DNA of 64,000 bases, from the NCBI GenBank assembly GCA_963836085.1, contig CAWIHT010000014.1, positions 296,773 to 360,772 of the forward strand. Reading direction: 5' to 3'. The DNA comes from an uncultured Actinomycetota bacterium (GTDB lineage: Bacteria > Actinomycetota > Acidimicrobiia > Spongiisociales > UBA5794). Below the pieces are notes generated by a model that was not told the DNA's origin, did not search any database, and saw nothing but the letters and a program-made list of their open reading frames with translations. The position numbers and the translations under genes were made by a program. Positions 6,276 through 64,000 of this stretch are shown here, in pieces (the first letter of the stretch is position 1; every line of letters begins with the position of its first letter).

Positions 6276-6295
6276 GCCGGCGAGTGTAGCCCTGG

Positions 6296-6512: not shown

Positions 6513-6519
6513 CGGACCT

Positions 6520-47562: not shown

Positions 47563-47946
47563 TCAGCGTTCTCGATTGAGTGGGTCCGGCACGGACGCCG
47601 GGTCTTCAAGAGCACGGGCAATGAGATGGAGCGTGTCGTCCATCTGATCGAGGACGTAGTCGTCCCAGAAGCGCAGCACGAACCATCCGTTGCGTCGGAA
47701 CCAGAGGTCTCGACCTCGGTCCCGCTCGCGTTGCTTGTCGGTGTGCGTGTCGCCGTCGACCTCCACGATGAGCCGGGCTGAGAGACACGCAAAGTCCGCG
47801 ATGAACGGCCCGATCGGCTCCTGGCGCCGGAACCTGACTCCCATGTGCTTGCGCCTCAGGTGATACCACAGACGATCCTCAGCAACCGTCGGATCCGCCC
47901 GCATCTCTCGCGCAAACCGCAGCGTTCTCCGCTCCCGATAGGCCAT
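47563..47946 (-). CDS. DUF559 (Vsr/restriction-endonuclease-like fold) domain protein
   Basis: RRQEPIGPFIADFACLSARLIVEVDGDTH…DRGRDLWFRRNGWFVLRFWDDYV matches DUF559; embedded between repeat copies. Confidence 0.8.
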   Translation of the reverse strand: MAYRERRTLRFAREMRADPTVAEDRLWYHLRRKHMGVRFRRQEPIGPFIADFACLSARLIVEVDGDTHTDKQRERDRGRDLWFRRNGWFVLRFWDDYVLDQMDDTLHLIARALEDPASVPDPLNRER

Positions 47947-47996
47947 GAACGAGTCGTACCGCGTCCGTACTCCCCATTCAAGACCCGTGAAAGCCG

Positions 47997-48700
47997 GAGG
48001 CCCCCTCTGCGATCGAGCAGCCGCTCGATCGCGTCTCCCCCACCTGACGGCGGTGGAGACGAAGACCTGTCTTGGCCTCTCCCACGCCGTGGGGGAGGCG
48101 CGAGCACCGGCCGCCAGGCCGGAGCGCAGCAGAGGGGGCTCACGGGGATTGAATCACCAAGATGTGGTCTCGCGTGTGGCGAGATGCCCCCTCTGCGATC
48201 GAGCAGCCGCTCGATCGCGTCTCCCCCACCTGACGGCGGTGGAGACGAAGACCTGTCTTGGCCTCTCCCACGCCGTGGGGGAGGCGCGAGCACCGGCCGC
48301 CAGGCCGGAGCGCAGCAGAGGGGGCTCACGGGGATTGAATCACCAAGATGTGGTCTCGCGTGTGGCGAGATGCCCCCTCTGCGATCGAGCAGCCGCTCGA
48401 TCGCGTCTCCCCCACCTGACGGCGGTGGAGACGAAGACCTGTCTTGGCCTCTCCCACGCCGTGGGGGAGGCGCGAGCACCGGCCGCCAGGCCGGAGCGCA
48501 GCAGAGGGGGCTCACGGGGATTGAATCACCAAGATGTGGTCTCGCGTGTGGCGAGATGCCCCCTCTGCGATCGAGCAGCCGCTCGATCGCGTCTCCCCCA
48601 CCTGACGGCGGTGGAGACGAAGACCTGTCTTGGCCTCTCCCACGCCGTGGGGGAGGCGCGAGCACCGGCCGCCAGGCCGGAGCGCAGCGGAGGGGGCTAC
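47997..48700 (+). repeat. Tandem array of about 3.8 near-identical copies of a 186-bp composite palindromic unit
   Basis: Unit boundaries at 48001, 48187, 48373 and 48559 (period exactly 186). Each unit carries hairpins gcgatcgagc/gctcgatcgc, gtctccccc…ggtggagac, cctctcccacg/cgtgggggagg, ccggcc/ggccgg and tctcgc/gcgaga, with the closing inverted repeat gccccctctgc/gcagagggggc. The period is divisible by 3, which creates spurious long ORFs in all frames. Confidence 0.85.
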
Positions 48701-49038
48701 TCCGCTGCCGGGAGGTAGCGGTCGGGTTCTTCGAAGATGTCGAGGCCACGGGTGCCTGGGGCGACCCAGGTGGTGTGGGGGATGCCGCCTGGGACGAAGT
48801 AGGTGTCGCCGCGGTGATACTCGCCGGTCTCATCACCGATCTGCATCCGGACCGTCCCGCTGAGGACGATCCCCCATTGGTCGCCGTGGACGTGTTCTGG
48901 CACGACGATCTCTCGATCGGTCGCTTCATAGAACATCACAAGACCGCGATCTCCCGACGAAAGGTACGCGTCGAGAGCGACATCCCCGTCCGGCCTCGGC
49001 AGCGCTTTGACGAAGGCGGGGAACTCGTTCTCCATCAA
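48697..49038 (-). CDS. Cupin domain protein
   Basis: Cupin_2 motifs (VPEHVHGDQWGIVLSG…GDTYFVPGGIPH). Confidence 0.8.
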   Translation of the reverse strand: MMENEFPAFVKALPRPDGDVALDAYLSSGDRGLVMFYEATDREIVVPEHVHGDQWGIVLSGTVRMQIGDETGEYHRGDTYFVPGGIPHTTWVAPGTRGLDIFEEPDRYLPAAE

Positions 49039-50212: not shown

Positions 50213-51121
50213 ATGAGCGACTCCCATCTCCACCTCTACCCCCATCGCAAGGGCGACCCCCTGCCCGCTCCCCCGCCGACGACCTACCGACTCGACCATA
50301 TCGAGGCCTACGTCGACAAAGCGATACGCCGCGACGTTAACGAACTCACCTTCACCGAGCACCTCTATCGGTGCGTCGAGTCCGAGGAAGCGATCGGCAA
50401 TATCTGGGAACGCGCGTCCGACCCGACCATCCGCTCCAACACCGAGTACGACCTCCTCGCCGATCGCACGATGTCGCTCGAGCGATACGTCGAGGTCATC
50501 ACAAAGGCCAAAGATGCGGGTCTTCCCGTGCTGTTGGGCCTGGAGGTCGACTTCTTCTCCGACAACATCGAGGCCGTTCTCGAGCTCATCGAACCATATC
50601 CGTGGGATGTGCTGCTCGGTTCGATCCACTGGATCGATGGGTGGTGGTTTGACCGGGCCCACTCCGAGTTCGAGTGGGAACGCCTTGGGCCGCGCCGCGT
50701 CTACGAGCGCTACTTCGAACTCCTGTCCGAGATGGCCGCGTCTGGAACCGTCGACATCATCACGCATCCCGACCGGGTCAAGTACCTCCGCAAACCGTTC
50801 CTCACCGAGCAGACCGACCTGTACGCCGGTTTCCTCGCGGCAGCGCAGCAGACCAACATGGTCATCGAGATCAACACCGGGGGCCTGCGGCACCCGGTGC
50901 ACGAGATCTACCCGTCGCCGATCTTCATCCGCATGATTCACGAGGCCGGTCTCGCGATCAGTTTCGGGAGCGACGCCCACGCCCCGAAGCAGGCAGCGTG
51001 GGGATTGGACCTGGCCAGGGAGGAAGCTGCCGAAGCCGGCTTCACCCACCGCGCCCGGTTCGTCGGCCGGGAGCGAACGATGGTTCCATTCGAAGCCCCA
51101 CCCCAGTCGTTCACCGACTGA
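50213..51121 (+). CDS. PHP-domain histidinol-phosphatase family hydrolase
   Basis: MSDSHLHLYPH…FTEH…GLEVD…GSIHW…ITHPD…GSDAHAP metal-ligand pattern of the HisK/PHP family. Confidence 0.8.
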   Translation: MSDSHLHLYPHRKGDPLPAPPPTTYRLDHIEAYVDKAIRRDVNELTFTEHLYRCVESEEAIGNIWERASDPTIRSNTEYDLLADRTMSLERYVEVITKAKDAGLPVLLGLEVDFFSDNIEAVLELIEPYPWDVLLGSIHWIDGWWFDRAHSEFEWERLGPRRVYERYFELLSEMAASGTVDIITHPDRVKYLRKPFLTEQTDLYAGFLAAAQQTNMVIEINTGGLRHPVHEIYPSPIFIRMIHEAGLAISFGSDAHAPKQAAWGLDLAREEAAEAGFTHRARFVGRERTMVPFEAPPQSFTD

Positions 51122-51131
51122 CGGCGACACC

Positions 51132-51968
51132 ATGCGACTCTCCTTCAAGACGCGACCCCAACACAGCGAGTGGCAACCGATCGTCGACTTCTGGAAGGAA
51201 GGCGACCGGATCGACCTATACGACGCGGGGTGGACGTTCGACCACCTCGATCCCATCTTCAGCGATCGCTCGGGACCGGTGTACGAAGGCTGGACGATGC
51301 TGGCCGCGCTGAGCGGGATCGTGCACCGGCTTCGACTCGGCGTGCTCGTAACCGGCAATACCTACCGGCATCCTTCCGTCCTCGCCAACATGGCGTCGAC
51401 GCTCGATGTGGCATCCGGCGGGCGTCTCGAGATCGGCCTGGGCACCGGCTGGATCGAACCCGAGCATGTCGCCTACGACATTCCGCTTCCGTCGTGGAAG
51501 GAACGCTTCGACCGCCTGGAGGAGACGTGCGAGATCCTCCACCTGCTCTTTACCGAGGAGATCACGGACTTCGACGGGCCTTTCCATCGCCTCGAGAACG
51601 CGCGAGCCTTGCCGAAGCCGATCCAGAAGCCCCATCCCCCGATCGTCATCGGCGGCACCGGCGAGAAGCGGACCCTACGCATCGCCGCCCTGTGGGCCGA
51701 TCAGTGGAACCTGCCGGGAGGCGACCCCGACATGCTCCGTCACAAGATCGGGGTGCTCCACGCCCACTGCGCGGATGTCGGGCGCGATCCTGCCGAAATC
51801 GAGGTCTCGGCGAAGCTGGCGGCCGACGGCGATCCGGCCGAACTCGCGGACCTGGTCGGAGCCTTCCGCGAAGCCGGCGCCGACCACATCATCGCCATGT
51901 TCGAAGCCCCCTTCGATCCCGCACGGCTCGGCATCGTCGCCGAGCACCTGGAGCCGGTCATCCGTTGA
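51132..51968 (+). CDS. LLM-class F420-dependent oxidoreductase
   Basis: Luciferase-like TIM-barrel signatures (RLEIGLGTGW, IVIGGTGEKRTLRIAA). Confidence 0.85.
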   Translation: MRLSFKTRPQHSEWQPIVDFWKEGDRIDLYDAGWTFDHLDPIFSDRSGPVYEGWTMLAALSGIVHRLRLGVLVTGNTYRHPSVLANMASTLDVASGGRLEIGLGTGWIEPEHVAYDIPLPSWKERFDRLEETCEILHLLFTEEITDFDGPFHRLENARALPKPIQKPHPPIVIGGTGEKRTLRIAALWADQWNLPGGDPDMLRHKIGVLHAHCADVGRDPAEIEVSAKLAADGDPAELADLVGAFREAGADHIIAMFEAPFDPARLGIVAEHLEPVIR

Positions 51969-52029
51969 GGGAGCTACCAGCTGCCAGCCACCAGCAAGAG
52001 GCGATCCAGCCGCATCTTCGCGCTTGAAG

Positions 52030-52108
52030 CTCCCAGAGCCCCCTCCGCTGCGCTCCGACCTAGCGGCCGGTGCTCGCGCCTCCCCCACTGCGTGGGAGAG
52101 GCGAAGAC
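52030..52108 (-). repeat. Partial copy (B module plus linker) of the palindromic repeat family between convergent genes
   Basis: gagccccctccgctgcgctccgacctagcggccggtgctcgcgcctcccccactgcgtgggagaggcgaagac. Confidence 0.7.
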
Positions 52109-52128
52109 ACGTCGGGCTCGTAGCTCTC

Positions 52129-53172
52129 CTACGGCTCGATGATCACTTTCAACGCACCGTCTCGGCGCTCGTTGAAGGTGTCAATGGCGGTGCGGAAATC
52201 GTCGAGGGGGAAGGTGTGGGTGTGGAGTTCGTTCACGCGGATGCGTCCGTCCGATACGAGCGGCATCGCCCGGCGCATTCCGCCGGCTGTTGCTCGAACG
52301 CCGACCAGTTCCTTCTCGTAGAGCACGAGATCCTGGAGCGAGAGGGTCACATCCTCGACCGGGATACCGACCGAGGCACATCGCCCGCCCTTGTGGAGCA
52401 TGGCGAGCGCCCAGCGGTAGGAGTCCGGCACGCCGGCGCAGTCGAGCGCCACGTCGGGCCCGATGTCGTCGGTCATCGCTCGCACCGTCTCGACCGGATC
52501 ATTGACGGCGTAGTCGACCGTCTCGTATCCCAACTCGGCAGCCTTCGCGAGGCGCTCACCGCGCCCCACCACGATCACCCGTCCGGCGCCAAGCGCCTTC
52601 GCCGCGTCACAGGCCAACAGACCCACCGGTCCGGGACCGAGGACGACCACCGTTGCACCGGAACTGATATTGCCGCGCTCGGCCGTGTGGAGGGCGATCG
52701 CTGCCGGGTCGAGCAAGGCGCCCTCGTGAAAGCTCATCTCGTCCGGCAAGTGGAAGACCGATTTGACGCCGTGGACGACGTACTCGGCGAAGGCTCCCTG
52801 CCAGTTGTGCCCGTACTGGCGATGCACATCGGTGTTGCCGTAGTTCTCGCACAGGTTGTAGCGACCCTCGACACACTTCTTGCAGAACCCGCACGCATCG
52901 TGCGAAGTGCCGGCGACGCGATCACCGACCGCGAATCCGAGGGCGGCGGCACCCTCGCCGAGTTCGCACACCACACCGGCCCACTCATGGCCGGGGATGA
53001 ACGGATATGACGGTGGCCAGAAGCCCGGGTAGTCGCCTCGCAAGAGGTGGGCATCGGTGCCACAGATCGTGATGGCCTTGACGCGGCACAACACCTCCTG
53101 CGGCCCGGGAGCCGGCTTCTCGACATCTTCGATGCCGAACTCGTCGGGACCAGTGAGCACTAGAGCCTTCAT
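52129..53172 (-). CDS. Zinc-dependent alcohol dehydrogenase (MDR family)
   Basis: ATG at 53172 (MKALVLTGP). Catalytic Zn GHE motif (GHEWAG), structural Zn Cys cluster CGFCKKCVEGRYNLC, GPGPVG Rossmann. Confidence 0.9.
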   Translation of the reverse strand: MKALVLTGPDEFGIEDVEKPAPGPQEVLCRVKAITICGTDAHLLRGDYPGFWPPSYPFIPGHEWAGVVCELGEGAAALGFAVGDRVAGTSHDACGFCKKCVEGRYNLCENYGNTDVHRQYGHNWQGAFAEYVVHGVKSVFHLPDEMSFHEGALLDPAAIALHTAERGNISSGATVVVLGPGPVGLLACDAAKALGAGRVIVVGRGERLAKAAELGYETVDYAVNDPVETVRAMTDDIGPDVALDCAGVPDSYRWALAMLHKGGRCASVGIPVEDVTLSLQDLVLYEKELVGVRATAGGMRRAMPLVSDGRIRVNELHTHTFPLDDFRTAIDTFNERRDGALKVIIEP

Positions 53173-53185
53173 GAGCAGTCCCCGC

Positions 53186-54076
53186 CTAGAGCATCGCCAC
53201 CGGATCGACCATCGATCCGGTCGCACCCTTGATCTTCAGCGGGAGCATCACGAAGAGGAACTCGTACACCTTGTCGCGGGCGATCTCTTCCAGATAGATG
53301 CTCTCGAGCAGGTAGATCCCGTTCTCGATGAGCAGCTTGGTGTGAACCGGCTGCGGGTTCGCAGGCGATCCGCGGTCCGGCGTCGGCATGACCTCATAGG
53401 TCTCCGTGTCGGTTCCGGTCGCGACCACGCCCTTCTCCAGCAGCCACTCGGCGGCGGAGAGATCGGGGCCGGCCGTCTTGTGCTCCGCCATCGCCTCGGC
53501 ATCCGGCCAGTACTTGAGATAGCCGGTGCGGATCAACACGACGTCCCACGGCCGAATCTCGACGCCCTGTGCGTCTGCGATGGCTTGCAGTTCGTCGGCT
53601 CCGATCGGTTCGCTCGACGGCAACGCGTCGATACCCCGGTAGGCGGGCGGATCGAGCAGAACACCCCTGGTGAAGAACGGCGGGAGATGCGAGGCATCGC
53701 CGACGATCGGACCATGGTCGGTGAGGTGCTCGGCGGTGTTCCCTCCGCCGTACCAGTGGTTGTCGTCGCCGATCGTCATGTGACCGAGACCATCGATGTG
53801 GGCGCCCGAGTGCGAGCACGCCATGATGTACTCGGCCATGTAGCCGAGGCCGACCTCGTTCGGCGGGCCCCACGGCTGTACGCCGCCGGCCTTGATGCCG
53901 GGAGGCGTCCGATAGTTGAGAACCTGGAACGGCGGATGGCCTGGGAAGAGCGGCATCCCGGTGAAGCGAGGCACCGACAACGAGTAGGAGCGGCCCTCCT
54001 TCACCATCTGCGCTGCTTCGACCACCTTCTCGGCCGGCATGTCCCTCACAGGACCGACGTGCTGAATCTCACTCAT
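53186..54076 (-). CDS. Cyclase-family metal-dependent amidohydrolase (kynurenine formamidase / isatin hydrolase-like)
   Basis: HSGAHIDGLGH (HxGTHxDxPxH-type) motif; 296 aa. Its start overlaps the stop of the Mo-subunit gene. Confidence 0.8.
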   Translation of the reverse strand: MSEIQHVGPVRDMPAEKVVEAAQMVKEGRSYSLSVPRFTGMPLFPGHPPFQVLNYRTPPGIKAGGVQPWGPPNEVGLGYMAEYIMACSHSGAHIDGLGHMTIGDDNHWYGGGNTAEHLTDHGPIVGDASHLPPFFTRGVLLDPPAYRGIDALPSSEPIGADELQAIADAQGVEIRPWDVVLIRTGYLKYWPDAEAMAEHKTAGPDLSAAEWLLEKGVVATGTDTETYEVMPTPDRGSPANPQPVHTKLLIENGIYLLESIYLEEIARDKVYEFLFVMLPLKIKGATGSMVDPVAML

Positions 54077-56325
54077 GACTCCTGCTCCCTCATGGCTTCC
54101 CACACTCGCTGGGGTGTCAGCGGCAGATCACGGATGATCAGCCCGGTGGCGTCGCGAACCGCCGCTCCGACGGCCGGCGCCGTGCACAACAGGCTTCCTT
54201 CGCTGACTCCCTTGACCCCGTAGGGCCCGGGTCCGTCGTGATTCTCGATACTCGCGCTGATCAACTCGATCGGCAGGTCCTTGCTGGTTGGGATCCGGTA
54301 GTCGATGGCGCCCAGATTCCTGGTGCGGCCCTCTTCGTCGAGGATGTATCCCTCCATCAGCGAGTGGCCGAGGCCCATGATCGCTGCGCCGTCGTCCTGC
54401 CCGTGCACCTGCTGCGGGTTGAGGGCGGTTCCGACGTCGCCGACGGTGACGTGCTTGATGATCTGGATCTCACCCGTCTCGTCGTCCACCGTTGCCTCGA
54501 TCGCCGTGCAGTTGAATTCGAAGAACGCTGCCGAACCCGCGAGCGGGTGGCCCGGCACCTTGTCTTTGCGCATCTCGCCGTTGCCGATGACTTCTCCACC
54601 GAGCGGCCCGAGCCCCGCTGTGACCACGTCCATGATCGGCAGGTCTTCGCCCGCCATTCGGACGACGCCTCCGTCGACCTCGATCTCGGATTCGTCCACA
54701 TCGTGGACCCTTGCGGCCATGGTCTTCACCTTGCCGTGCACGTCCTTACAGGCTCGGTAGACCGACGTGCCCATGAGGACCGTCGACCGGCTTGCGGATG
54801 TCTGCTGGTCGTAGGGCACGGTGGCCGTATCACCCATGATGACATTGACGTTCTCGAGGGGAATGCCCATCTCCTGCGCGACAATCTGCGCGAACACCGT
54901 CCTGGCGCCCTGGCCCATGTCGGACGTCCCGCTGAAGAGAATCGCACTGCCGTCGGCCAGCAGGCGGACCGTCGAATAGGACAGACCGGTCGTCGGACCG
55001 GACTTCAGTCCGAGCGCGACTCCACGGCCGTGACCCTCGGGGAGTGGCGTGTCCCAGCCGATCAGTTCCGCGGCCTTGTCGATCGTCTGCATCCACTCGC
55101 CGTCGGCAGGTGTGTCTCCCGGCACGAATTCGTAGCCCTTTTCGGGGATGTTGCGACGTCTGATCTCGAACCGGTCGATGCCGAGTTCGAGCGCGGCTTC
55201 GTCCAACGTCGACTCACGAGCCCACGTGATCTGGGGAACGCCAAATCCGCGGAATGCGGTCGTCGGTGCCGTATTCGAGAGGATCGTCCTCCCGATGATC
55301 TTCACGACCGGGACCTTGTACGGGCCGGCCGCCACATAGGACGACTTGCTCGCGACACGATCTGCGATGTCGACGTAGGCGCCAATGAGGTAGTTCGTCT
55401 CGATGTCCTTGAACACCATGATGCCATCGTTGGTCAACCCCATCCGAACGCGAACACGGGTTGACGGACGGCGCACGGCCTGGAAGGTCTCTTCGAGCGA
55501 CATGATCAGCCGGACCGGCCGTCCGGTCTTCAGCGCCATGTAGCAAACCAGCGGTTCGAGCTTCGGATGCTGCTTGCCTCCGAAACCGCCACCGGGATCC
55601 GGAGCGAAGACCCGCAGCTTCGACAGCGGGATGTTGAGCAGCTTTGCGAGCGTCTTCTGGAGCTGGAATGGATGCTGGATCGTGCTCCAGACATTCAGTT
55701 CATCGCCGTCGGGCTGCGCGATGAACGCATGCGGTTCGATGGCGAAGTGGGTGATCATCGGGAACTCGTACTCCCGCTCGATCACGAAGTCCGCATCCGC
55801 TTCGACGTCCGCGATGTCGCCCCAGCCGAAGTTGATCTCGGTCTTGATGTTCGTGTTCGCGAACGGTTCACCAACCCGCAGCGACGGGTCTTGCACGAGC
55901 GGAGCATCGGGGGCGAGCGCCGCATCGATCGTGTGGACGTTCGGCAGCACCTCGTACTCCACGACCACGGCGGCAGCGCCTTCCTCGGCGGCCTCCTTCG
56001 TGTCGGCGGCCACGGCGGCCACCGGCTCGCCGTGGTAGTTGACCGTACCGACCGCCAGGACCGGTCGGTCCTGATACTGAGGTCCGAAGCGCGGCATCGG
56101 CGTCGGCAGGTCGTCAGGGGTCATGACGAGCCGGACGCCCGGCACCTGCTCTGCTTTCGTCGTGTCGATCGAGATGATCCTTGCCTTCGACTCGTCGATT
56201 GTGACGAGCTTGGCGTGGAGTTCGTCAACGAGATGGACGTCTGCGACGTACTCCTGCGCGCCGGTGACGCGGTCGCGGCCGCCGACGCGGTTCGGCGAGG
56301 ATCCGACGAACGTGTTCGATGTCAT
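54073..56325 (-). CDS. Xanthine-dehydrogenase-family molybdopterin-binding large subunit (CoxL/XdhA-like)
   Basis: ATG at 56325 (MTSNTFVGSSPNRVGGRDRVTGAQEY). AFRGFGVPQ motif, Ald_Xan_dh_C and C2 domains. The ORF-track N-terminal extension to 56676 is antisense/overlap read-through. Confidence 0.9.
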   Translation of the reverse strand: MTSNTFVGSSPNRVGGRDRVTGAQEYVADVHLVDELHAKLVTIDESKARIISIDTTKAEQVPGVRLVMTPDDLPTPMPRFGPQYQDRPVLAVGTVNYHGEPVAAVAADTKEAAEEGAAAVVVEYEVLPNVHTIDAALAPDAPLVQDPSLRVGEPFANTNIKTEINFGWGDIADVEADADFVIEREYEFPMITHFAIEPHAFIAQPDGDELNVWSTIQHPFQLQKTLAKLLNIPLSKLRVFAPDPGGGFGGKQHPKLEPLVCYMALKTGRPVRLIMSLEETFQAVRRPSTRVRVRMGLTNDGIMVFKDIETNYLIGAYVDIADRVASKSSYVAAGPYKVPVVKIIGRTILSNTAPTTAFRGFGVPQITWARESTLDEAALELGIDRFEIRRRNIPEKGYEFVPGDTPADGEWMQTIDKAAELIGWDTPLPEGHGRGVALGLKSGPTTGLSYSTVRLLADGSAILFSGTSDMGQGARTVFAQIVAQEMGIPLENVNVIMGDTATVPYDQQTSASRSTVLMGTSVYRACKDVHGKVKTMAARVHDVDESEIEVDGGVVRMAGEDLPIMDVVTAGLGPLGGEVIGNGEMRKDKVPGHPLAGSAAFFEFNCTAIEATVDDETGEIQIIKHVTVGDVGTALNPQQVHGQDDGAAIMGLGHSLMEGYILDEEGRTRNLGAIDYRIPTSKDLPIELISASIENHDGPGPYGVKGVSEGSLLCTAPAVGAAVRDATGLIIRDLPLTPQRVWEAMREQES

Positions 56326-56798
56326 TCCTTCCCCGCCTTCGCGGCCACGAGGACCGCCTCGGTGATCTGCAGGTACCCGGCGCAACGACAGAGGTTCCCG
56401 CCGAGAGCCTCGTGTACGTCGTCGATCGTCGGGTCTGGATTGCTCTGCAGCAACGCGTGTGCCGACATCAGCTGTCCCGGGATGCAGAACCCGCACTGCG
56501 GGGCGCTGACATCGAGGAACGCCTGCTGGAGCGCACTCAGGTGCCCGTCGACGGCAAGTCCTTCGACACTGGTGACATCCCGTCCGTCGACTTCGACGGC
56601 GAGCATGAGGCACGAGTTCATCGGGATGCCGTCGACGACGACCGTGCAGGCCCCGCACTCGCCAACCACGCAGCATTCTTTGGTGCCGGTGAGTCCGAGT
56701 TGGTCGCGAAGAACGTCGAGCAGGGTGTGGTTCGGTGCAACCTCAAATGAGCGATCGCGCCCGTTGATGGTTGCTTCGATCTCAATCAGTTCGCTCAT
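56322..56798 (-). CDS. (2Fe-2S)-binding small subunit of molybdenum hydroxylase (CoxS-like)
   Basis: CVVGECGACTV plant-type and CGFCIPG…CRCAGY second 2Fe-2S motifs. Confidence 0.9.
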   Translation of the reverse strand: MSELIEIEATINGRDRSFEVAPNHTLLDVLRDQLGLTGTKECCVVGECGACTVVVDGIPMNSCLMLAVEVDGRDVTSVEGLAVDGHLSALQQAFLDVSAPQCGFCIPGQLMSAHALLQSNPDPTIDDVHEALGGNLCRCAGYLQITEAVLVAAKAGKE

Positions 56799-57667
56799 GA
56801 CACTCCTTGCAGTTCCTGCAGGCGCTCGATGGCCCTGCGGATGGCCCGGGCGCCGAGCACCCGCAACATCGCCTGTCGATAGTCCGGACTGGCCCGCATC
56901 GAGCGTACCGACGGACTGGCGTCGGCGAAGATCTCCTCGAGCACCTCGGCCTTGGCCTCCTTCGAGGCCGCGGGATCCGCGAGCACACCGGTATCGTCGG
57001 TCCGGAGGAAGGCACGGGGCCCCACGCTTCCGAACGCAACCTGGGCGACACCGGCGTCGTCGACGGTTGCGCAGAGCGTCACCGATGCCAGGTCCGTACC
57101 CTTTCTACGCGTCATCCGCTCGTACGCGCCGCCGAGCATCCGCGTCGGCGTGGTGAGCTCCAGAGCGATGGCGAGTTCGCCCTCCTGGAGATCGGTCTTC
57201 CCTGGGCCGACAATGAAGTCGTTGATCGGTATGCGGCGCTGTCCGCTGGGACCGGCCACCACGATGACCGCTTCATACGCCAGGAGCGGAGGCGCGGTGT
57301 CGGCCGCGGGTGAGCCGTTGCAGATGTTGCCGAGCAGGGTCGCCCGGTTTCTGATCTGCACCGAACCGACCACGACCGCTGCCTCGACGAGTGCCGGGAA
57401 GTGCTTGTTGATCCCCGGGTCATTGACGATCTCGGTCATCGTTGCCGCGGCGCTCACCGTCAACGTGTCTCCGTCCCACCTGAGGGTCGGGTACAGCTCG
57501 ACGATCCGCTTCAGGTCGACGACGACCTTCGGCTGGCGGTACCGGTCCCGCATGGCGATCACCAAGTCGGTTCCGCCCGCGAGAATCTCGGTCTCCGAAC
57601 CACTCGCAGCAAGCACCTGAAGCGCCTCGTCGAGCGACTCAGGACGTTCGTAAGAGAACTCCTTCAT
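56795..57667 (-). CDS. FAD-binding medium subunit of molybdenum hydroxylase (CoxM-like)
   Basis: FAD_binding_5 (AGGTDLV) and CO_deh_flav_C domains. Confidence 0.9.
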   Translation of the reverse strand: MKEFSYERPESLDEALQVLAASGSETEILAGGTDLVIAMRDRYRQPKVVVDLKRIVELYPTLRWDGDTLTVSAAATMTEIVNDPGINKHFPALVEAAVVVGSVQIRNRATLLGNICNGSPAADTAPPLLAYEAVIVVAGPSGQRRIPINDFIVGPGKTDLQEGELAIALELTTPTRMLGGAYERMTRRKGTDLASVTLCATVDDAGVAQVAFGSVGPRAFLRTDDTGVLADPAASKEAKAEVLEEIFADASPSVRSMRASPDYRQAMLRVLGARAIRRAIERLQELQGVS

Positions 57668-57688
57668 GTCGTCACGCTTTCTCGATTG

Positions 57689-58576
57689 TCAGATGACCTT
57701 GTCGACCTCATCCATCAGCGCCTGCGGATTGGCGGCACGAATCATGTAGAACTTGCGGGGACCGCAGAAGCTCTCTGTGAAGTCGGCCCGCGCTTGGCGC
57801 AGCGCCTCGGTGTCCGTCAACGGCATCGTGTGGCCCGGTGCCAGCAACTCGTTGGTGAGGAAGTAGTTCTGGAGTGAGTGGAAGTTCTGGAATTGTGCCT
57901 CGAACTGACCGAGTTCGGAGGTCGTCGGATCGAAGTTGCCGTCGATAGCGGGAACGATGACGATATCGACGTTGCTCGGCTCGTCGTAGTCCTCCCACGT
58001 CGGCATTTCGTCACCGAAGAAGATCTGGGCGCCACGCTCGGGAGCGGCCTTGTCGGCCCGCTCGGTGCCCTTGGCCCGGCTCTTGATGAAGACCGTCTTG
58101 GATCCCATGATCACGGTTCCGGTCTCGTCGATCACCGTGGTCTCGGTGGAGACGAGCTTCCCGCCGCGCCGGCAGGCTTCGATCTGGCACATGCTCTTGC
58201 CGTGGTTGGATTCTCCGCCGAGGAACAGGACCGTCTTGCCCTGGTAGCGCACGGCAGACGAGTGGAACGGATGCAGGCCCTCGGCCTCCATGCGCAAAGC
58301 GAGCACGGTGACGATCGCCTTCTGGATGGGGCCCTCGGCCCAATCGCCGTCGAAGCGCATCGTCGTGCCGTCCCACGTAACCGACTTCTCGGTTGCGTCG
58401 CGGTCCCAGACCAGATCCGGTTCGCTGAGGATGGAATCGGGCTCGAGCGTGACGTCAGCGAGGCGGTAGTTCATGAAGTCCATGTTCTGGAGCACGTGCT
58501 CGGGAACCTCGGAACCGACGACGTCGATCCGAATTCTCGCGGTGCTGGCCGACATTTCCTCGGTGAGCATTGCCAT
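57689..58576 (-). CDS. HPr-kinase/phosphorylase C-terminal-domain-like P-loop protein (stand-alone)
   Basis: FHSSAVRYQGKTVLFLGGESNHGKSMCQIEACRRGGKLVSTE aligns with the HprK_C P-loop pattern (H-G-x-V-x3-G-x-V-L-h-x-G-x-S-x2-GKS-x3-E-x3-RG-x-LV). GGAGAG lies upstream of the ATG at 58576. Confidence 0.55.
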   Translation of the reverse strand: MAMLTEEMSASTARIRIDVVGSEVPEHVLQNMDFMNYRLADVTLEPDSILSEPDLVWDRDATEKSVTWDGTTMRFDGDWAEGPIQKAIVTVLALRMEAEGLHPFHSSAVRYQGKTVLFLGGESNHGKSMCQIEACRRGGKLVSTETTVIDETGTVIMGSKTVFIKSRAKGTERADKAAPERGAQIFFGDEMPTWEDYDEPSNVDIVIVPAIDGNFDPTTSELGQFEAQFQNFHSLQNYFLTNELLAPGHTMPLTDTEALRQARADFTESFCGPRKFYMIRAANPQALMDEVDKVI

Positions 58577-58800
58577 GGTGTTCTCTCCTCAATCGGTTGT
58601 TCGTTCTCTGTGTCATCAATCCGGGCGGCACGAGGGCTCCCGGCAATCGTGATGGATCGTTCGGCCCTTCGGGGGGCATATCAGGTGCCGATCACCCGGA
58701 GGACCCTCGTCAAGTCTCGGTTCCGCGGCGCCTCATCGCTCCCGGGGGTTCTCGTTCCAGCAGTCGGCGCCGCTCCTCCCCGTGATCTCTCGGAGTGTTC
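58577..58800 (-). other. 224-nt GC-rich, hairpin-rich intergenic leader inside the operon (between GntR and the HprK-like gene)
   Basis: No ORF longer than the cut-off; contains several inverted repeats (e.g. cccggg…cccggg, gggagccctcgtgccgcccgg). Possible attenuator, processing site or cis-regulatory RNA. Confidence 0.3.
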
Positions 58801-59493
58801 CTATGCCTCAACCGTCTCCTTGCGCACCTGGTCGATGCCCTCGATGAGAACCGCAGCTTCGGCAGCGTGCTTGCGGCTCAGGTCGGCAGCGAGTTCGGGA
58901 TCTTGGTCCCGTATGGCTGCGAGCAATGGCTCGTGCCGCTTCGAGAGCCAGTGCAGATCGATGCCGGGCGCAGAAGCCGTGATGTAGGTCCGCGAGAACG
59001 GTTCGAGCATCGACCACTGCCGCTCCAACGTCGGATTGTGCGCTGCCGCAATGATTCGGGCATGGAACCGGGTGTTGTTGAGCGCCTGGTCGTGAGCATC
59101 GCCCCGATCGGCCGCCTCGTCCATGGCCTCATACAGCATTTGGAGGTCGACGATGCATTGTTCAGTGCGTCGCTCTGCGGCCAGTCGGCCACCCAGCGCC
59201 TCGAGTTCAGCGCGTACCTCGATGGCCTGCGTGAGCTCTTCGCGGGTGGGCTTGCGGACCCGGGCTCCTTTGTGGGGTTTCATCTCGACGAATCCGAGGA
59301 TCGCCAGGTCGCGGAGCGCTTCGCGCACCGGAGCTTGACTCACGCCCAGTTCGCGGGCGACCCGGGTCTCGACGATGCGAGACCCGGGCGCCAGCTCTCC
59401 TTCGAGAATCCACGTGAGAATGCGGTCTTTGACCCCTTCGGAGAGCACTTCTCTCGTCACGGGTGCGGACTGATTCTCTTGCAGATTCGTCAT
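58801..59493 (-). CDS. GntR family transcriptional regulator (FadR/FCD-type C-terminal domain)
   Basis: N-terminal wHTH (RIVETRVARELGVSQAPVREALRDLAILGFVEMKPHKGARV) and an all-helical FCD C-terminal domain. Confidence 0.9.
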   Translation of the reverse strand: MTNLQENQSAPVTREVLSEGVKDRILTWILEGELAPGSRIVETRVARELGVSQAPVREALRDLAILGFVEMKPHKGARVRKPTREELTQAIEVRAELEALGGRLAAERRTEQCIVDLQMLYEAMDEAADRGDAHDQALNNTRFHARIIAAAHNPTLERQWSMLEPFSRTYITASAPGIDLHWLSKRHEPLLAAIRDQDPELAADLSRKHAAEAAVLIEGIDQVRKETVEA

Positions 59494-59530
59494 ATCAACT
59501 CTCAGGTCCTTCTGGGACCTGCTCCTATCG

Positions 59531-61282
59531 CTAGAGGATCTCTACGACACCATTCGTACCGTCGACCCGCAGGCGGTCGCCGGTCTTGATCTCGCGGGTG
59601 GCGACACCGGTGCCGGTGACACCCGGAATGCCGAACTCGCGAGCCATGACGGCGGGGTGCGCAACCATACCGCCGGCGTCACACACAATTCCGCCGATGA
59701 TGGCGAACACCGGCGTCCAGGCCGGGTTGGTCATCTGGCAGACCATGATGTCGCCCTGCTTCAACTGGTCGAACTCGGCCGGTGAGGAGACGACTTTCGC
59801 CACGCCCTCGATGACGCCTGGCGAAACGCCGATGCCTTCGATCCTGCCCTTGGTCTCGGTGTCGTGACCAAGCTTCTCGGGGAAGCCCCAGAGGTTCAGG
59901 TAGGGGAACTGCAACTGGTCTTCAGTCGCCGTGCCGATGAAGTCTGGCGGGCGGATCATCTCTTGTTCGGCGCGCAGCGCCCGGCGCTCGGCGACGATGC
60001 TCTTGGCCTCGTAGCCCTCCGGATCGCCCATCAGATAGCGCAGCTCGTTGTAGCGGAGGAACATGACGTCGTCCGCCTCGGTCAACGCGCCCATCTCAAC
60101 CAGCTTCCGACCGATGCACATCAACACCACACGAGTGTGCTGGTGCGTGCCCTGGTCGATGTAGAAGTGGTGGTCCGGAGTGAGCGGGGCCATCTTCAGG
60201 TTGATCTCGTTCGCTGCCTTCAGGGCCTCGAGGGCGTCGCCCTCTTCGATCCCCTCGAGGAGCTCCTCGGCCGCGGCCTGAATATCCGTCGCGAGATGCG
60301 CAACGATCGGGCGATGGTCGTAGTCGGAGTCGAGGTAACCCTTGATCACGTCGAGGACCGGTTCCGGCGTCTCGAACCGTGACGGGTAGATGAACTCGTG
60401 GCTCCAGACGGCGTGCCAGCCGAACTCGCGCTGGTAGACCTTCAGGCCGGACTCGATGAAGTCGCGCCCTTCCTCGGTCGCTTCGAGTGCTGCCAGGATG
60501 TCGGCGCCGGCCTCGTTGGCGAATGCCGCCATGAGAACGGGGTCGGCCTTGATCCGATCCTTCAGGTTGACGAGCAACTCGATCGCATCCCAGTTGCGGT
60601 CCGAGGACGAGTTCTGCAGACGGCCGAGGATCTCCTCGTGCTTCTGCGTGATCTCGCCGCCGAGCGCCTCTTCGAGCGTGGCGCGCAGCGCCAGTGTCGA
60701 CGAGAGCTGCGCGAAGTTGAGCATCCAGTGGATCTTCCAGTGGCGATCGAGCATGTCGATCGCGTCCTCGAGAACCACGGCCCACTCCATCAGCGAGATA
60801 TTCTCGTAGTCGTCGATCTTCTCTTCGAGATAGGCCAGATTCCGAGCCATCTCGGGGACGAGGCGATCTCGCCACCAGTCGGGGAAGTTGGCTCCGTAGA
60901 CGGGGAGCACGGCGCCGAGGTAGGCACCGATCTTCTCTGCGTAGTCGGGATCGGCATCCGTCGGCACACGCGGCGAGTACGTAAATCCGAGTTGGACGGT
61001 CGGGACGACCATGTCCGCGTCCGCTGGGATGGCGGCTGTGAACAGGTAGCCGTTGACGACCTTGCCGATCCAGTCGGTCGCGAACGGCGTACCGAAGCGA
61101 CGGAACATGTGATCACACGTGAGCACCCAGTTGCCGATGTCGTCATACATCGGAGAGACGGGGCGCGGGCAGTGCAGATCGTCGTAGACCCAGAACAGCT
61201 TCTTCTCTTGCTCCGATTCCCAATCAACCGGGAAACTCTCGTCTCCGAAGAACTCCGCTACAACCTTGCTGTTATCTGCCAT
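59531..61282 (-). CDS. PEP-utilizing-enzyme family protein: ~500-aa uncharacterised N-terminal domain plus C-terminal swivel phosphohistidine (mobile) domain; no ATP-grasp domain
   Basis: The C-terminal ~90 aa match the PEP-utilizers mobile domain (GDIMVCQMTNPAWTPVFAIIGGIVCDAGGMVAHPAVMAREFGIPGVTGTG), with the catalytic His present but the preceding Thr replaced (VAH instead of TSH). ATG at 61282 (MADNSKVV…). Confidence 0.65.
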   Translation of the reverse strand: MADNSKVVAEFFGDESFPVDWESEQEKKLFWVYDDLHCPRPVSPMYDDIGNWVLTCDHMFRRFGTPFATDWIGKVVNGYLFTAAIPADADMVVPTVQLGFTYSPRVPTDADPDYAEKIGAYLGAVLPVYGANFPDWWRDRLVPEMARNLAYLEEKIDDYENISLMEWAVVLEDAIDMLDRHWKIHWMLNFAQLSSTLALRATLEEALGGEITQKHEEILGRLQNSSSDRNWDAIELLVNLKDRIKADPVLMAAFANEAGADILAALEATEEGRDFIESGLKVYQREFGWHAVWSHEFIYPSRFETPEPVLDVIKGYLDSDYDHRPIVAHLATDIQAAAEELLEGIEEGDALEALKAANEINLKMAPLTPDHHFYIDQGTHQHTRVVLMCIGRKLVEMGALTEADDVMFLRYNELRYLMGDPEGYEAKSIVAERRALRAEQEMIRPPDFIGTATEDQLQFPYLNLWGFPEKLGHDTETKGRIEGIGVSPGVIEGVAKVVSSPAEFDQLKQGDIMVCQMTNPAWTPVFAIIGGIVCDAGGMVAHPAVMAREFGIPGVTGTGVATREIKTGDRLRVDGTNGVVEIL

Positions 61283-61643
61283 ACGGCAAATCTCCTTCCT
61301 CGACGGACCTCCGCCGGGACCGGCCCGCAACGGGCACAATCAGACTCCGACGCTCTTGTGCGTTCTTTGAGATAGCCGACTTCTGTGTTGGTGCTCCTCT
61401 CGCTACGTCGGTCGGACCGACCCGAGGCGAAGCCCTCGGAGGGCACGGCGCGCTCGAGCCTTCAATACGGGTGGTGCGGGCATATCGAGGAGGGCGACGG
61501 CAACCATGCTCACATCCCCAACACCGCTGGAAACCCAGGCGAAACAAAGAGAATCCGCCGGACGGTCGCTGGGACCGGGAGGGGCGTCACCGAGAGAGCC
61601 ATCACCATGGCACGGTTGTTCTCGACACCTGCACGCATCATCC

Positions 61644-61692
61644 TCGATAATCGATTACTTGCAGTTTACGGCCGAGAATCGCGATCCGTCAA
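61644..61692 (-). promoter_or_regulatory. Candidate sigma-70-like promoter (TTGACG-18-TAAACT) with instance 4 of the TCGATAATCGAT motif immediately downstream of the -10 (operator-like). It drives the PEP-utilizer/Mo-hydroxylase operon via a ~360-nt leader.
   Basis: Minus strand: aagTTGACGgatcgcgattctcggccgTAAACTgcaagTAATCGATTATCGAgg. The +strand motif tcgataatcgatta is at 61644..61657. Confidence 0.35.
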
Positions 61693-61704
61693 CTTGAGAT
61701 GAGG

Positions 61705-62115
61705 CGCCAGTCGCCAGTCGCCAGTCGCCGGTTCGGGGTCGGTCGCAGGCCTTCGCCTCTCCCACGGAGTGGGAGAGGCGCGAGCACCGGCCGCCAGGCC
61801 GGAGCGCAGCGGAGAGGGCTCTGGGAGCGCGAGCGCGCAGATGAGGCCTGGCGTGTGGCGAGACGCCCCCACTGCGATTGAGCAACCGTCTTCGCCTCTC
61901 CCACGCAGTGGGAGAGGCGCGAGCACCGGCCGCCAGGCCGGAGCGCAGCGGAGAGGGCTCCTCGCCTCGACACCACCTCAATCCTGAAGAACGCACCAGA
62001 GCTCATCCTCGCGATCCCATCCCCCAGGCCGCCCCCTCTGCGATCGAGCATCCGCCCGATCGCGTCTCCCCCACCTGGCGGTGGGAGAGACGAAGACCGC
62101 GACTGGCGACTGGTC
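61705..62115. repeat. ~410-bp composite repeat block bounded by inverted heptamer tandem repeats (ccagtcg x3 … cgactgg x2); candidate MITE-like insertion
   Basis: The left end is gcgccagtcgccagtcgccagtcgcc and the right end gcgactggcgactgg (its reverse complement). Inside are two B modules (61750..61820, 61890..61960), a linker-like segment and one A module (62030..62098) of the palindromic repeat family. Confidence 0.6.
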
Positions 62116-64000
62116 TCAGTCCGCCTCGAGCTCCCCCATCGCTTTCAGGATCTTCTCCGGGGTGATCGGGAGGTCACGGATGCGCACACCGATGGCGTCA
62201 TAGAGCGCGTTCGCGATGGCGGGTGGTGTTGCGGCGGCTGCCGGTTCGCCGACACCCTTGGCACCGTACGGGGCCTCGTCATGGACCGACTCGACGATGA
62301 TCGGAACGATCGGAGGGATGTCCATGATCGTCGCGACCTTGTAGTCCGCAAGGTTGCCGTTCTCGATGCGACCGTTGTCGTATGAGAATCCCTCGAGGAT
62401 TCCATTCGACAGGCCCATCACGACGCCGCCCTCGATCTGTTGCTCGACGGTCATCGGGTTGATGGCCTTCCCGACGTCTGCGGCTGCGGCCACCTTGAGA
62501 ACGCGAATCACGCCGGTATCGGTGTCAACCTCGATCTCGGCGGCCTGGGTGCACAGCATCCAGAAGATGCTGCTCATCCACTCCTCACCGGGATCGGCCT
62601 TGAGGAGCGGCGAGTTCGCGCTCGAGAACCGCGCCCCTGCCGTGATCGAGTAGTACTCGCCGTAGAACTTCGCGAGGAGGTCCTTGAGCGTGATCTGGAG
62701 TTCGCCGTCGAGGTCGCAGATGATGCCATCGCGCATCTCGAGCGTCTCCGGTTCGACTTCGAGCACCTCGCCGGCGAGGCTGAGGACCTGTTCGCGGATC
62801 TCGCCGCCTGCGTCGAGGATCGCATTGCCCATGTGATAGGTCGTGCGACTCGATGCCACGGGTCCGTTGTACGGAGTCAACAGCGTGTCGGTGGCAGGGA
62901 CCGAGACGTCCGAGAGGGGTACGCCGATCGCGTCCGCCGCGATCTGGGCGAGCACCGTGTCCTGGCCAGAGCCGATCTCAGGGGCTGCACAGATCACTGT
63001 GGCCCGACCGTCCTGCTCGAGGTTGATCACGACGTTCGAACTCGACGGAGTCATCGTGGGCTTGATCATCGTGGCGATGCCTTTACCGCGACGCAGGTTG
63101 GGCGCCGGCTCGCGCTCGACCGATCCCCAACCGATCTCGGCGGCTGACCGTTCAATGGTCTCGCGGAGGCCGACGGAGCGCATGATCTGGCCGTTGAGAT
63201 AGGCGTCGCCCTCTTCGTACCCGTTCATGAGGCGGATCTCGACGGGATCGATGCCCAATTCGACGGCGATCTCGTCCATCTGCGTTTCGCAGGCCCAGGT
63301 GACCTGGGTCGTGCCGTACCCGCGGTACGAACCGGTGATCGACTTGTTGGTGTAGACCTGGCGGGAGAGGATCTTGAGATCGGGGATCCGATAGGGCCCG
63401 ATGATGGTCTGCGACCCGCGGATCGCGACGCCGACCGTATACGCCGTGTACGCACCGCTGTCCCAGAGGACTTCGGCGCTCCGCGCAACCATCAGGCCGT
63501 CTCGGTTGACGCCGGTCTTGAGCTTCATGATGGCGGGCACGCGCAACTGGGACGCAACCAGGTCTTCCTCGCGGGTGAACTCGACCTTGACGGGACGGCC
63601 GCCCGAATGGCGCGCCAGGGCAACAGCGATCGCTTCGGCAACGGGAACACCCTTGGCTCCGAACGAACCGCCGACCTGGGCGACGATCAGGCGGACGCGG
63701 CTGCTGTCGACGCCGAGACCGGTCGCGAGTTCATTCCGCAGCAGGAACGGCCGATCCGTGGAGACCCAGAGGGTGTAGCCCCCGGAACCGGAGTCGTACT
63801 GGGCAATGGCAGCATGCACCTCGAGCGCGACGTGGCTGATCGCGTGGGCGGAGTACTCGCCCTCCACGACGACGTCGGCCGCAGCGAATCCGGCCTCGAC
63901 GTCGCCGCGCTCATACGTATAGAGCGTGTTGATGTTGGTGTGGGGGACGATCTCACTCGGCCCCCGCTTGTAGGTGTGGAGATCGGGATGGACGAGAGGG
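62116..64000 (-). CDS. Second xanthine-dehydrogenase-family molybdopterin-binding large subunit (paralog); N-terminus lies beyond the window end
   Basis: SYRGYGTTQ motif and Ald_Xan_dh_C/C2 domains. The ORF-track start at 63867 is internal; homology continues upstream to the window edge. Confidence 0.75.
   Translation of the reverse strand, partial: PLVHPDLHTYKRGPSEIVPHTNINTLYTYERGDVEAGFAAADVVVEGEYSAHAISHVALEVHAAIAQYDSGSGGYTLWVSTDRPFLLRNELATGLGVDSSRVRLIVAQVGGSFGAKGVPVAEAIAVALARHSGGRPVKVEFTREEDLVASQLRVPAIMKLKTGVNRDGLMVARSAEVLWDSGAYTAYTVGVAIRGSQTIIGPYRIPDLKILSRQVYTNKSITGSYRGYGTTQVTWACETQMDEIAVELGIDPVEIRLMNGYEEGDAYLNGQIMRSVGLRETIERSAAEIGWGSVEREPAPNLRRGKGIATMIKPTMTPSSSNVVINLEQDGRATVICAAPEIGSGQDTVLAQIAADAIGVPLSDVSVPATDTLLTPYNGPVASSRTTYHMGNAILDAGGEIREQVLSLAGEVLEVEPETLEMRDGIICDLDGELQITLKDLLAKFYGEYYSITAGARFSSANSPLLKADPGEEWMSSIFWMLCTQAAEIEVDTDTGVIRVLKVAAAADVGKAINPMTVEQQIEGGVVMGLSNGILEGFSYDNGRIENGNLADYKVATIMDIPPIVPIIVESVHDEAPYGAKGVGEPAAAATPPAIANALYDAIGVRIRDLPITPEKILKAMGELEAD

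Follow-up and report, generated by a model that had tools for sequence, protein, structure and literature searches.

The 64,000-nucleotide stretch of DNA analyzed here (hereafter, the window) comes from an uncultured Actinomycetota bacterium of the class Acidimicrobiia (GenBank assembly GCA_963836085.1, contig CAWIHT010000014.1, positions 296,773 to 360,772 of the forward strand) and carries a block of eight genes, two of which encode the subjects of this study, a 583-aa protein that ends in a phosphohistidine swivel domain and a 295-aa P-loop protein. An original prediction, made from the sequence alone, regarded these two proteins as the products of adjacent genes and as a new phosphotransfer arrangement, in which a P-loop kinase resembling HPr kinase/phosphorylase (HprK or HprK/P) either replaces in trans an ATP-grasp domain that the swivel protein lacks or regulates the swivel protein. 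The genes of this region are all on the minus strand, and the block, which is conserved and catabolic, runs from the putative H component of a two-component dikinase (the 583-aa protein) through a GntR regulator, the P-loop protein, the FAD, FeS, and Mo subunits of a xanthine dehydrogenase (XDH)-family enzyme, and a PF04199 hydrolase to a Zn-dependent alcohol dehydrogenase (ADH). The features are as follows, with RPH denoting rifampin phosphotransferase and PEPCK denoting phosphoenolpyruvate carboxykinase:

62116..64000, minus strand: large subunit of another, paralogous enzyme of the XDH family, located upstream of the block and cut off by the window end (PF02738, PF20256).
59531..61282, minus strand: predicted H component (583 aa) of a two-component small-molecule dikinase, with a helical domain like that of RPH for substrate binding (about residues 110-440) and, at the C-terminus, a phosphohistidine swivel.
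59657..59659, minus strand: codon of the predicted catalytic His542, in GGMVAHPAVMAREFGIP, aligned with the RPH catalytic His in GGLMTHGAVIAREYGLP.
58801..59493, minus strand: GntR/FCD-family transcriptional regulator, 230 aa (PF00392, E 1.5e-15; PF07729, E 1.2e-22).
58577..58800, minus strand: intergenic gap of 224 bp upstream of the P-loop gene (from open reading frame coordinates).
57689..58576, minus strand: P-loop protein, 295 aa, with a predicted PEPCK/HprK fold ('mini-PEPCK') and the predicted catalytic residues K86, H105, Walker A G121-S128 (K127), and E145.
56795..57667, minus strand: FAD-binding subunit of an XDH-family molybdenum enzyme (PF00941, PF03450).
56322..56798, minus strand: [2Fe-2S] subunit of the same XDH-family enzyme (PF01799, PF00111).
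54073..56331, minus strand: molybdopterin-binding large subunit of this first XDH-family enzyme, start codon approximate (PF01315, PF02738, PF20256).
53186..54103, minus strand: PF04199 'cyclase' family protein, a metal-dependent amidohydrolase of the kynurenine-formamidase type (PF04199, E 2.7e-24).
52129..53172, minus strand: Zn-dependent ADH family protein, last gene of the block (PF08240, PF00107).

Both the 583-aa and the 295-aa open reading frames have a third-position GC content of 0.84-0.85, typical for genes of the window, and this gene-like codon bias together with thousands of conserved homologues indicates that both are real. The two genes are not adjacent, as had been supposed, but are separated by the GntR/FCD gene (58801-59493) and the 224-bp gap; the GntR gene is kept at this position between the H and P-loop genes in 38 of the 41 orthologous loci with long flanks. 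The gap probably holds the promoter of an operon that leads from the P-loop gene through the XDH and cyclase genes to the ADH gene. In orthologous loci, the gap between the GntR and P-loop genes measures 83-252 bp and aligns in partly conserved blocks; no convincing GntR operator palindrome was found in this alignment, and the 224-bp gap of the window has no match to the sigma-70 consensus.

With regard to the 583-aa protein, the only Pfam match is the PEP-utilizers mobile domain that had been predicted for its C-terminus (PF00391, residues 508-578, E 1.3e-21), and the Pfam scan gave no match to PPDK_N, the ATP-grasp family. Among the NCBIfam models, PRK08296 aligns over the full length of the protein, and the models for RPH, PigC, RedH, and 'PRK06241 PEP synthase' align with its C-terminal two-thirds. 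A phmmer search against PDB sequences matched the protein to residues 528-866 of Listeria RPH, and this alignment sets GGMVAHPAV over GGLMTHGAV of RPH and thus assigns His542 as the predicted catalytic His. The AlphaFold2 model is of moderate confidence overall (pLDDT 67) and good in the helical core (residues 110-440); it is helical as far as the swivel domain, with about 480 residues accounted for by the RPH-like domain. RPH's ATP-grasp domain makes up roughly the first 310 residues of that protein. Since an RPH-like substrate domain and a swivel fill the chain of the 583-aa protein, there is no room in it for a degenerate ATP-grasp, and the predicted absence of this domain is thus borne out.

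The 583-aa protein accordingly shows a swivel with a GGxxxH-motif His near the C-terminus, a helical domain like the RIF-binding domain, and no ATP-grasp in the chain. Judged by its sequence, it appears to be the H component of a two-component RPH-type small-molecule dikinase, an ordinary subunit of a known kind. HpeH, PpsA, and CreH are H components with the same architecture and have a separate ATP-grasp partner, termed I (PMC12167813), so that the absence of an ATP-grasp from the 583-aa protein, part of what had been taken as a new arrangement, is canonical. For HpeH, phosphate exchange of aryl phosphates with phenols needs no partner protein (PMC12167813). The family comprises 4228 clusters of homologues and is currently labeled "pyruvate, water dikinase" in databases; exact-sequence look-ups in a sequence collection returned no identical record for either the 583-aa or the 295-aa protein. 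The original prediction also pointed to the replacement of the Thr before the catalytic His by a VAH motif, which is indeed present in the protein from the window, but this motif is clade-specific and not diagnostic. The residues before the His are V-A in the window's clade (20 loci) and T[VT]SH in other orthologues, while the H proteins that accompany a divergent P-loop subfamily (see below) have Ala or Ser before the His (Ala in 20 of 33). The corresponding residue is Ser in PpsA and CreH and Cys in HpeH, and a C580A mutant of HpeH was faster than the wild type (PMC12167813).

The 295-aa protein carries the Walker A motif GGESNHGKS and has no Pfam match and no match to an NCBIfam PEPCK model; the HprK model TIGR00679 reaches only E 0.0056 (16 bits, with a cut-off of 240). 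Its AlphaFold2 model (pLDDT 91.8, pTM 0.89) shows a two-domain PEPCK fold with a P-loop nucleotide domain, and membership in the PEPCK family is not found at the level of sequence. In a Foldseek search with this model, the top 34 matches, and 36 of the top 37, were ATP-dependent PEPCKs (from E 3e-8), with HprK/P appearing from E 4e-5; the fold comparison aligned 226 residues with PEPCK versus 114-143 with HprK, and the N-terminal domain aligns with PEPCK and is not of the HprK type. A profile of the P-loop family likewise matched Thermus ATP-PEPCK (1j3b) at E 0.0015, as a local match, and HprK at E 0.057. Because both structure and profile are nearer to ATP-dependent PEPCK, 'miniature PEPCK' fits the 295-aa protein better than 'HprK'. 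The predicted HprK_C-type P-loop thus stands as far as fold class and Walker A motif are concerned, whereas the sequence match to HprK is weak.

In the PEPCK alignment, GDWAEGPIQK86 lies over GTKYAGEIKK, the PEPCK-specific lysine motif, H105 over the metal-binding His, and GGESNHGK127S over the P-loop; LVSTE145 is the positional counterpart of LVADD in HprK, so that the HprK-like catalytic constellation (H105, G121-ESNHG-K127-S128, and LVSTE145) is present as well. H105, K127, and E145 are invariant in the P-loop family, which also has conserved Arg and Tyr residues at R16, R38, R110, Y111, R173, and R263, possible counterparts of the oxaloacetate/CO2-binding Arg65, Tyr207, and Arg333 of E. 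coli PEPCK. As modeled, the 295-aa protein would combine the PEPCK/HprK fold with a P-loop and a complete set of catalytic residues.

The P-loop family consists of 2853 clusters at 90% identity and 158 representatives at 50% identity, mostly fragments, and is present in 422 GTDB species representatives. The best 80 of these 422 are at least 63% identical to the protein from the window and are metagenome-assembled genomes, mostly of Acidimicrobiia/Actinomycetota, Chloroflexota (including Limnocylindria), and Dormibacterota. A whole-library phmmer search with the P-loop protein delineated a tight family with no bridge to any named family; a single-sequence search against PDB sequences gave a chance match only, PEPCK and HprK being reached only by the family profile, and a search of the PLSDB plasmids gave no match. 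Apparent fusions of the P-loop protein with XDH FAD or FCD domains (P0127, P0233, and P0241) look like frameshift read-throughs in error-prone assemblies and were set aside. A remote relative with 29% identity (L087, 467-1333) has a weak PF27840 'ScmC' label. Its neighbours are genes for a glycosyltransferase and a protein of the AP-endonuclease fold, and no dikinase gene is close by; members of the wider superfamily evidently serve other functions. The family is named 'hypothetical protein' in databases, and our literature search found no description of it or of its association with two-component dikinases; searches on HprK- or PEPCK-like proteins together with PEP-utilizing enzymes, and on 'ScmC', returned nothing relevant.

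We surveyed 80 genome loci of the P-loop gene as orthologues and scored their neighbours by tblastn; the well-flanked orthologous set, defined by 8 kb or more of upstream and 9 kb or more of downstream sequence around the P-loop gene, comprised 38 loci. The H gene is present in 36 of these 38, a gene for a 718-aa ATP-grasp-plus-swivel protein in 24, and a UPF0261 gene in 15; six loci, all from close relatives in the window's clade, have an H gene only, with no ATP-grasp within 10 kb. Downstream, in 78 of 78 orthologous loci, a gap of 3-79 bp leads from the P-loop gene to the XDH FAD gene, and PF04199 and Zn-ADH genes are found in 29 and 25 of 41, respectively. With PRK05878, a truncated-PPDK model, the 718-aa protein scores above the cut-off; it consists of an ATP-grasp, a swivel domain of its own (GGLASH), and a C-terminal domain of about 230 residues. 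This C-terminal domain, for which only a weak HVO_A0261_N match was seen, also occurs as a separate gene in L135 (9163-9522), L137 (8953-9525), L139 (1111-1683), L116 (257-895), and L119-L121 and L125 (at about 5140-5470); the separate gene directly follows the P-loop gene in L137 and L139 and lies about 300 bp downstream of it in L135.

A divergent subfamily was represented by 80 metagenome loci whose members are 36-55% identical to the P-loop protein from the window, 22 of them well flanked (5 kb or more to either side). All 22 contain a dikinase gene, either H or I (H in 18, an I-type ATP-grasp in 17, both in 13), and 18 contain PF04199, but any XDH gene is found in only 3; with dikinase genes in 22 of 22 of these loci and XDH genes in just 3, it is the dikinase, not XDH, to which the P-loop gene is linked, and its association with XDH is confined to one subfamily. 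In 58 divergent loci, the gene that directly precedes the P-loop gene was scored; most commonly it is a stand-alone ATP-grasp (I) gene (27 of 58), with H in 11. Individual loci illustrate the range of arrangements: H is followed by the P-loop gene after a 10-bp gap in L086; the order is H, GntR, cyclase, 273-aa ATP-grasp, and P-loop in L088, the last two genes overlapping by 4 bp and the XDH trio being convergent; the ATP-grasp gene is divergently transcribed in L005; and CoxG and XDH FAD genes follow the P-loop gene in L152, L158, and L091. In one subfamily, the metagenome loci L095-L109, a conserved run of H, P-loop, and cupin genes comes after an HMGL-like gene wherever the upstream sequence reaches that far, with a PF04199 gene downstream, a second HMGL-like gene beside an I-type ATP-grasp, and no XDH genes, which looks like a different catabolic pathway with the same phosphotransfer module. 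The constant companions of the P-loop family are thus dikinase components and PF04199, and the downstream catabolic enzymes vary (XDH, or HMGL-like with cupin). The 583-aa and 295-aa proteins are genetically linked across deep divergence, and the pair, far from being absent from orthologous loci, holds together as originally predicted; by contrast, the P-loop protein seems to accompany an ATP-grasp rather than to replace it.

In the window itself, a tblastn search of the whole 64 kb (E up to 1) found no ATP-grasp, UPF0261, or PEP-hydrolase homologue; the window reaches only 2.7 kb upstream of the H gene. A homologue search with the 718-aa protein of L016 found a gene on the 66,607-bp contig that carries L009, one of the loci with H only, and a homologue is apparently also present elsewhere on the 100,003-bp contig that carries L013, another of the loci with H only. 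The contig CAZONX010000003.1 (L175), whose P-loop protein is 92% identical to that of the window, is collinear with window positions 51008-63999 at 78-84% nucleotide identity and has a 712-aa ATP-grasp-plus-swivel gene about 11 kb upstream of its H gene, after the second XDH trio, an ABC transporter, and Y_phosphatase3 and before a UPF0261 gene. Projected onto the window, this gene would lie about 9 kb past position 64000. Since a syntenic relative has its ATP-grasp gene beyond the corresponding end, the lack of an ATP-grasp in the window is, as judged from this sequence comparison, most likely an effect of the window edge and of a more dispersed cluster. The same contig (8527-13419) carries CMD-like, Y_phosphatase3 (tyrosine-phosphatase-like), 712-aa, and UPF0261 (MarK-like kinase) genes in a run after the ABC transporter; Y_phosphatase3 is a candidate for a dephosphorylation step.

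A related cluster in a cultured organism is found on the Thermomicrobium roseum megaplasmid (NC_011961.1, 56118-68463; L094). It is syntenic, encodes an H protein 47% identical to that of the window, and contains, in order, genes for an ABC transporter, UPF0261, a PEP-hydrolase-family protein, GntR, a cyclase-family protein, a classical 323-aa ATP-grasp, a 205-aa hypothetical protein, XDH FAD, a fumarylacetoacetate hydrolase family protein, a small monooxygenase, H, and XDH Mo and FeS subunits. There is no P-loop homologue in this cluster. The 205-aa protein, which occupies the equivalent position, was considered as a relative of the P-loop protein and found to be unrelated (hhalign probability 0.3%), and its candidacy as a substitute phosphohydrolase was dropped, its only match being a sub-threshold one to DUF4202. 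Because T. roseum has H and I and no P-loop protein, the H family works with an ordinary I protein, and the P-loop protein appears to be a lineage-limited addition; T. roseum may thus offer a natural control or comparison strain.

With regard to the other genes of the block, NCBIfam equivalog matches of the XDH Mo subunit (4-hydroxybenzoyl-CoA reductase alpha, XdhA, and others) are all below their cut-offs, and an identity as 4-hydroxybenzoyl-CoA reductase was rejected, the equivalog scores being far under the cut-offs and the FAD subunit covering only the N-terminal third of the HcrB model. The second XDH Mo subunit (62116..64000) is 34% identical to the first. Only in the window's clade is the H gene directly preceded by a second XDH trio (33-35% identical to the first), an arrangement seen in L006, L009-L011, L013, and L016 (at about 3100-6900), and the two molybdenum hydroxylases may act in one pathway. 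In the window, the H gene and the second large subunit are separated by a 776-bp gap with repeat elements. A repetitive extragenic palindromic (REP)-like palindrome, GCGCCTCTCCCACNNCGTGGGAGAGGCGAAG, occurs in nine copies in the window (6479, 47489, 48071-48659, 52076, 61751, and 61890), with none expected by chance; the eight-gene block has copies on both sides, one shortly after the ADH stop codon (52076) and two upstream of the H gene (61751 and 61890). The palindrome is present in each unit of a tandem repeat (48000-48698; 186-bp unit, 3.8 copies, 99% identity), which sits inside a 357-aa 'ORF' (47856-48929, minus strand) that has no Pfam match and is probably not a gene.

Taken together, we interpret the locus, with middling confidence, as encoding a dikinase H component whose ATP-grasp is encoded elsewhere, along with a conserved mini-PEPCK-like third partner that would move phosphate between a nucleotide and a small-molecule phosphate; the P-loop protein is probably a third component of such dikinases. 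To our knowledge, every known pathway of the small-molecule dikinase type needs a step that disposes of the phosphate. In the proposed mechanism, the helical domain of the H protein would bind a hydroxylated substrate, and its hydroxyl may be phenolic, enolic, or N-heterocyclic, as suggested by the XDH neighbour. His542 on the swivel domain would carry phosphate to the substrate after being loaded by a separate ATP-grasp polypeptide, as in PpsAB, CreHI, and HpeHI; in this lineage the putative partner is most probably the truncated-PPDK-like protein of about 712 aa (ATP-grasp plus swivel). The P-loop protein would then act on the enol-, aryl-, or heteroaryl-phosphate made by the dikinase, passing its phosphoryl group to or from a nucleotide. 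This step might be PEPCK-type chemistry at an enolate or phenolate oxygen, which we prefer because the whole two-domain cleft architecture is PEPCK-like, and which could recover ATP; alternatively, it could be coupled to carboxylation or decarboxylation. The XDH-type enzyme would next add a hydroxyl group to the compound in its activated or released form, and the product would go on to be processed by the PF04199 hydrolase and ADH. A precedent for an XDH-type enzyme that depends on such a dikinase is the 3-hydroxypyridine dehydrogenase HpdA of the 3hpd cluster, which is inactive without orf9 (ATP-grasp) and orf10 (swivel) (bioRxiv 10.1101/2020.01.08.898148). The substrate, the direction of phosphotransfer, and the ATP-grasp partner are thus put forward here as we infer them.

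Several points weigh against this interpretation. HpeHI, CreHI, and PpsAB work without a P-loop protein and the T. roseum cluster exists without one, so the P-loop protein is not essential to dikinase chemistry; moreover, its frequent tight coupling to the ATP-grasp gene fits a protein-directed role at least equally well. The equivalence of E145 with PEPCK Asp269 and HprK Asp179 is suggested by motif position, not by superposed coordinates; the remote ATP-grasp is projected from a relative, the window sequence ending at 64 kb; and the 718-aa protein has a swivel of its own, unlike known I components, which makes its partnership with H putative.

Two-component dikinases start the breakdown of phenol, cresol, and the lignin-derived compound acetovanillone (PMC12167813), and genetic evidence indicates that 3-hydroxypyridine breakdown is also started by a dikinase (bioRxiv 10.1101/2020.01.08.898148). 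Why such compounds are phosphorylated and how the phosphate is later handled is a question in this field (PMC12167813; bioRxiv 10.1101/2020.01.08.898148). The P-loop family, which has no Pfam model, is strongly conserved, travels with dikinases, and has PEPCK-type catalytic residues, is for these reasons a concrete candidate for the missing phosphate-handling step. A bolder and more tentative proposal is that of an unrecognised class of three-component dikinases, in which the mini-PEPCK swaps phosphate between a nucleotide and either the phospho-His of the swivel or the enol- or aryl-phosphate product. Such a class, if real, could recover ATP from the activated intermediate or couple dephosphorylation to a PEPCK-like carboxylation, and would give uncultured Acidimicrobiia, Chloroflexota, and Dormibacterota a new, ATP-sparing way to activate or carboxylate phenolic and heteroaromatic compounds.

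Among the alternatives, the one that survives best, and that we nonetheless consider unlikely, is that the P-loop protein uses ATP to phosphorylate His542 directly, as an HprK-like protein kinase that replaces the ATP-grasp at least where the block has none. The strong linkage of the H and P-loop genes (36 of 38) is compatible with direct loading, as are the loci where the P-loop gene directly follows H (L086 and L095-L109), the six loci of the window's clade without an ATP-grasp within 10 kb and its absence from the 64 kb of the window; the fold class includes the protein kinase HprK/P, and T. roseum (I only), L088 (I and P-loop), and the window block (P-loop only) can be read as stages of a replacement. 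However, an ATP-grasp gene adjoins the P-loop gene more often than any other gene does (27 of 58), and 17 of the 22 well-flanked divergent loci contain one; the 718-aa ATP-grasp protein is encoded in 24 of 38 orthologous loci, and even in the window's clade L175 has its ATP-grasp gene 11 kb away and the contig of L013 apparently carries one elsewhere. Because ATP-grasp genes usually accompany the P-loop gene, direct loading can no longer rest on the lack of an ATP-grasp, and the originally predicted replacement in trans finds no support where the relative's gene maps about 9 kb beyond the window. The two-domain architecture also matches PEPCK, a small-molecule enzyme with a closed cleft, over HprK (226 versus 114-143 residues).

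It is still less probable that the P-loop protein is a regulatory kinase/phosphorylase, like HprK/P or PDRP, that switches the dikinase through a Ser or Thr of the swivel, the second role that had been predicted for it. Membership in the HprK fold class and tight gene coupling to dikinase components would suit such a role, as would the T-T-S-H or T-V-S-H sequence before the His in some orthologues, which resembles T-S-H of PPDK. Against this, V-A precedes the His throughout the window's clade (20 loci) and Ala in 20 of 33 divergent H proteins, yet the P-loop active site is intact and fully conserved, and the N-terminal domain is PEPCK-like, not HprK-like. No PTS (phosphotransferase system) component was found among the scanned neighbouring genes of the window, ptsH itself not having been searched for explicitly. 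Finally, the least probable suggestion is that the P-loop protein serves the XDH-family enzyme as an accessory subunit or a maturation factor, and that only shared operon membership links it to the swivel protein. In favour are the place of its gene right before that of the FAD subunit (78 of 78 orthologous loci, gaps of 3-79 bp) and the CoxG and XDH FAD genes that follow it in L152, L158, and L091, but these are outweighed by XDH genes in only 3 of the 22 well-flanked divergent loci versus dikinase genes in all 22, and by invariant catalytic residues that argue for an enzyme, not a scaffold.

Our preferred reading, a two-component dikinase with a mini-PEPCK-like third partner, can be set against several known proteins and systems. 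ATP-dependent PEPCK is the best fold match to the 295-aa protein over both domains, and its profile matches over the YAGEIKK...H...GxxGxGK[TS] region, where the 295-aa protein has counterparts of the catalytic Lys and of the metal-binding His, together with the P-loop and an acidic residue; PEPCK differs in size (about 530 versus about 295 residues) and shares only about 13% identity, and the 295-aa protein has no PEPCK Pfam match. With regard to the C-terminal domain of HprK/P, the 295-aa protein is far below the family cut-offs and has a different N-terminal domain, PEPCK being the better match. RPH (PDB 5hv1 and 5fbs) consists of one chain whose N-terminal part, an ATP-grasp of about 310 residues, is absent from the 583-aa protein.

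PpsAB(C), CreHI, HpeHI, and AcvAB share with the window an RPH-like domain and a C-terminal swivel His less than 50 residues from the C-terminus, without an ATP-grasp, in a catabolic cluster; compared to PpsAB, CreHI, and HpeHI, the block and the window are without an I-type ATP-grasp gene, and the genes downstream encode an XDH-family hydroxylase and a PF04199 hydrolase, where the known two-component systems have carboxylases or P450s. PpsABC provides a precedent for a third, stimulatory protein, PpsC being a CBS-domain protein whereas the third protein of the window has the PEPCK/HprK fold. UPF0261 is the family of MarK, which was recently shown to be an aromatic hydroxyl kinase (PMC12624787); many related loci, L175 among them, have its gene next to the H or 718-aa gene, and these neighbours point to aromatic-hydroxyl phosphorylation as a theme of the clusters, but the window lacks a UPF0261 gene, and the UPF0261 fold is unrelated. 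The 3hpd cluster of Ensifer adhaerens (HpdA1-4, orf9/orf10) combines, like the window, an XDH-family hydroxylase, GntR, and a split dikinase; it differs in that a P-loop protein is not mentioned in the text of the paper, in that HpdA has a separate SRPBCC subunit, and in its downstream maleamate-pathway genes, which are absent from the block. Compared with all of these systems, and as far as we have found, the swivel protein is of a known kind, and what is new is the P-loop family and its association with dikinases.

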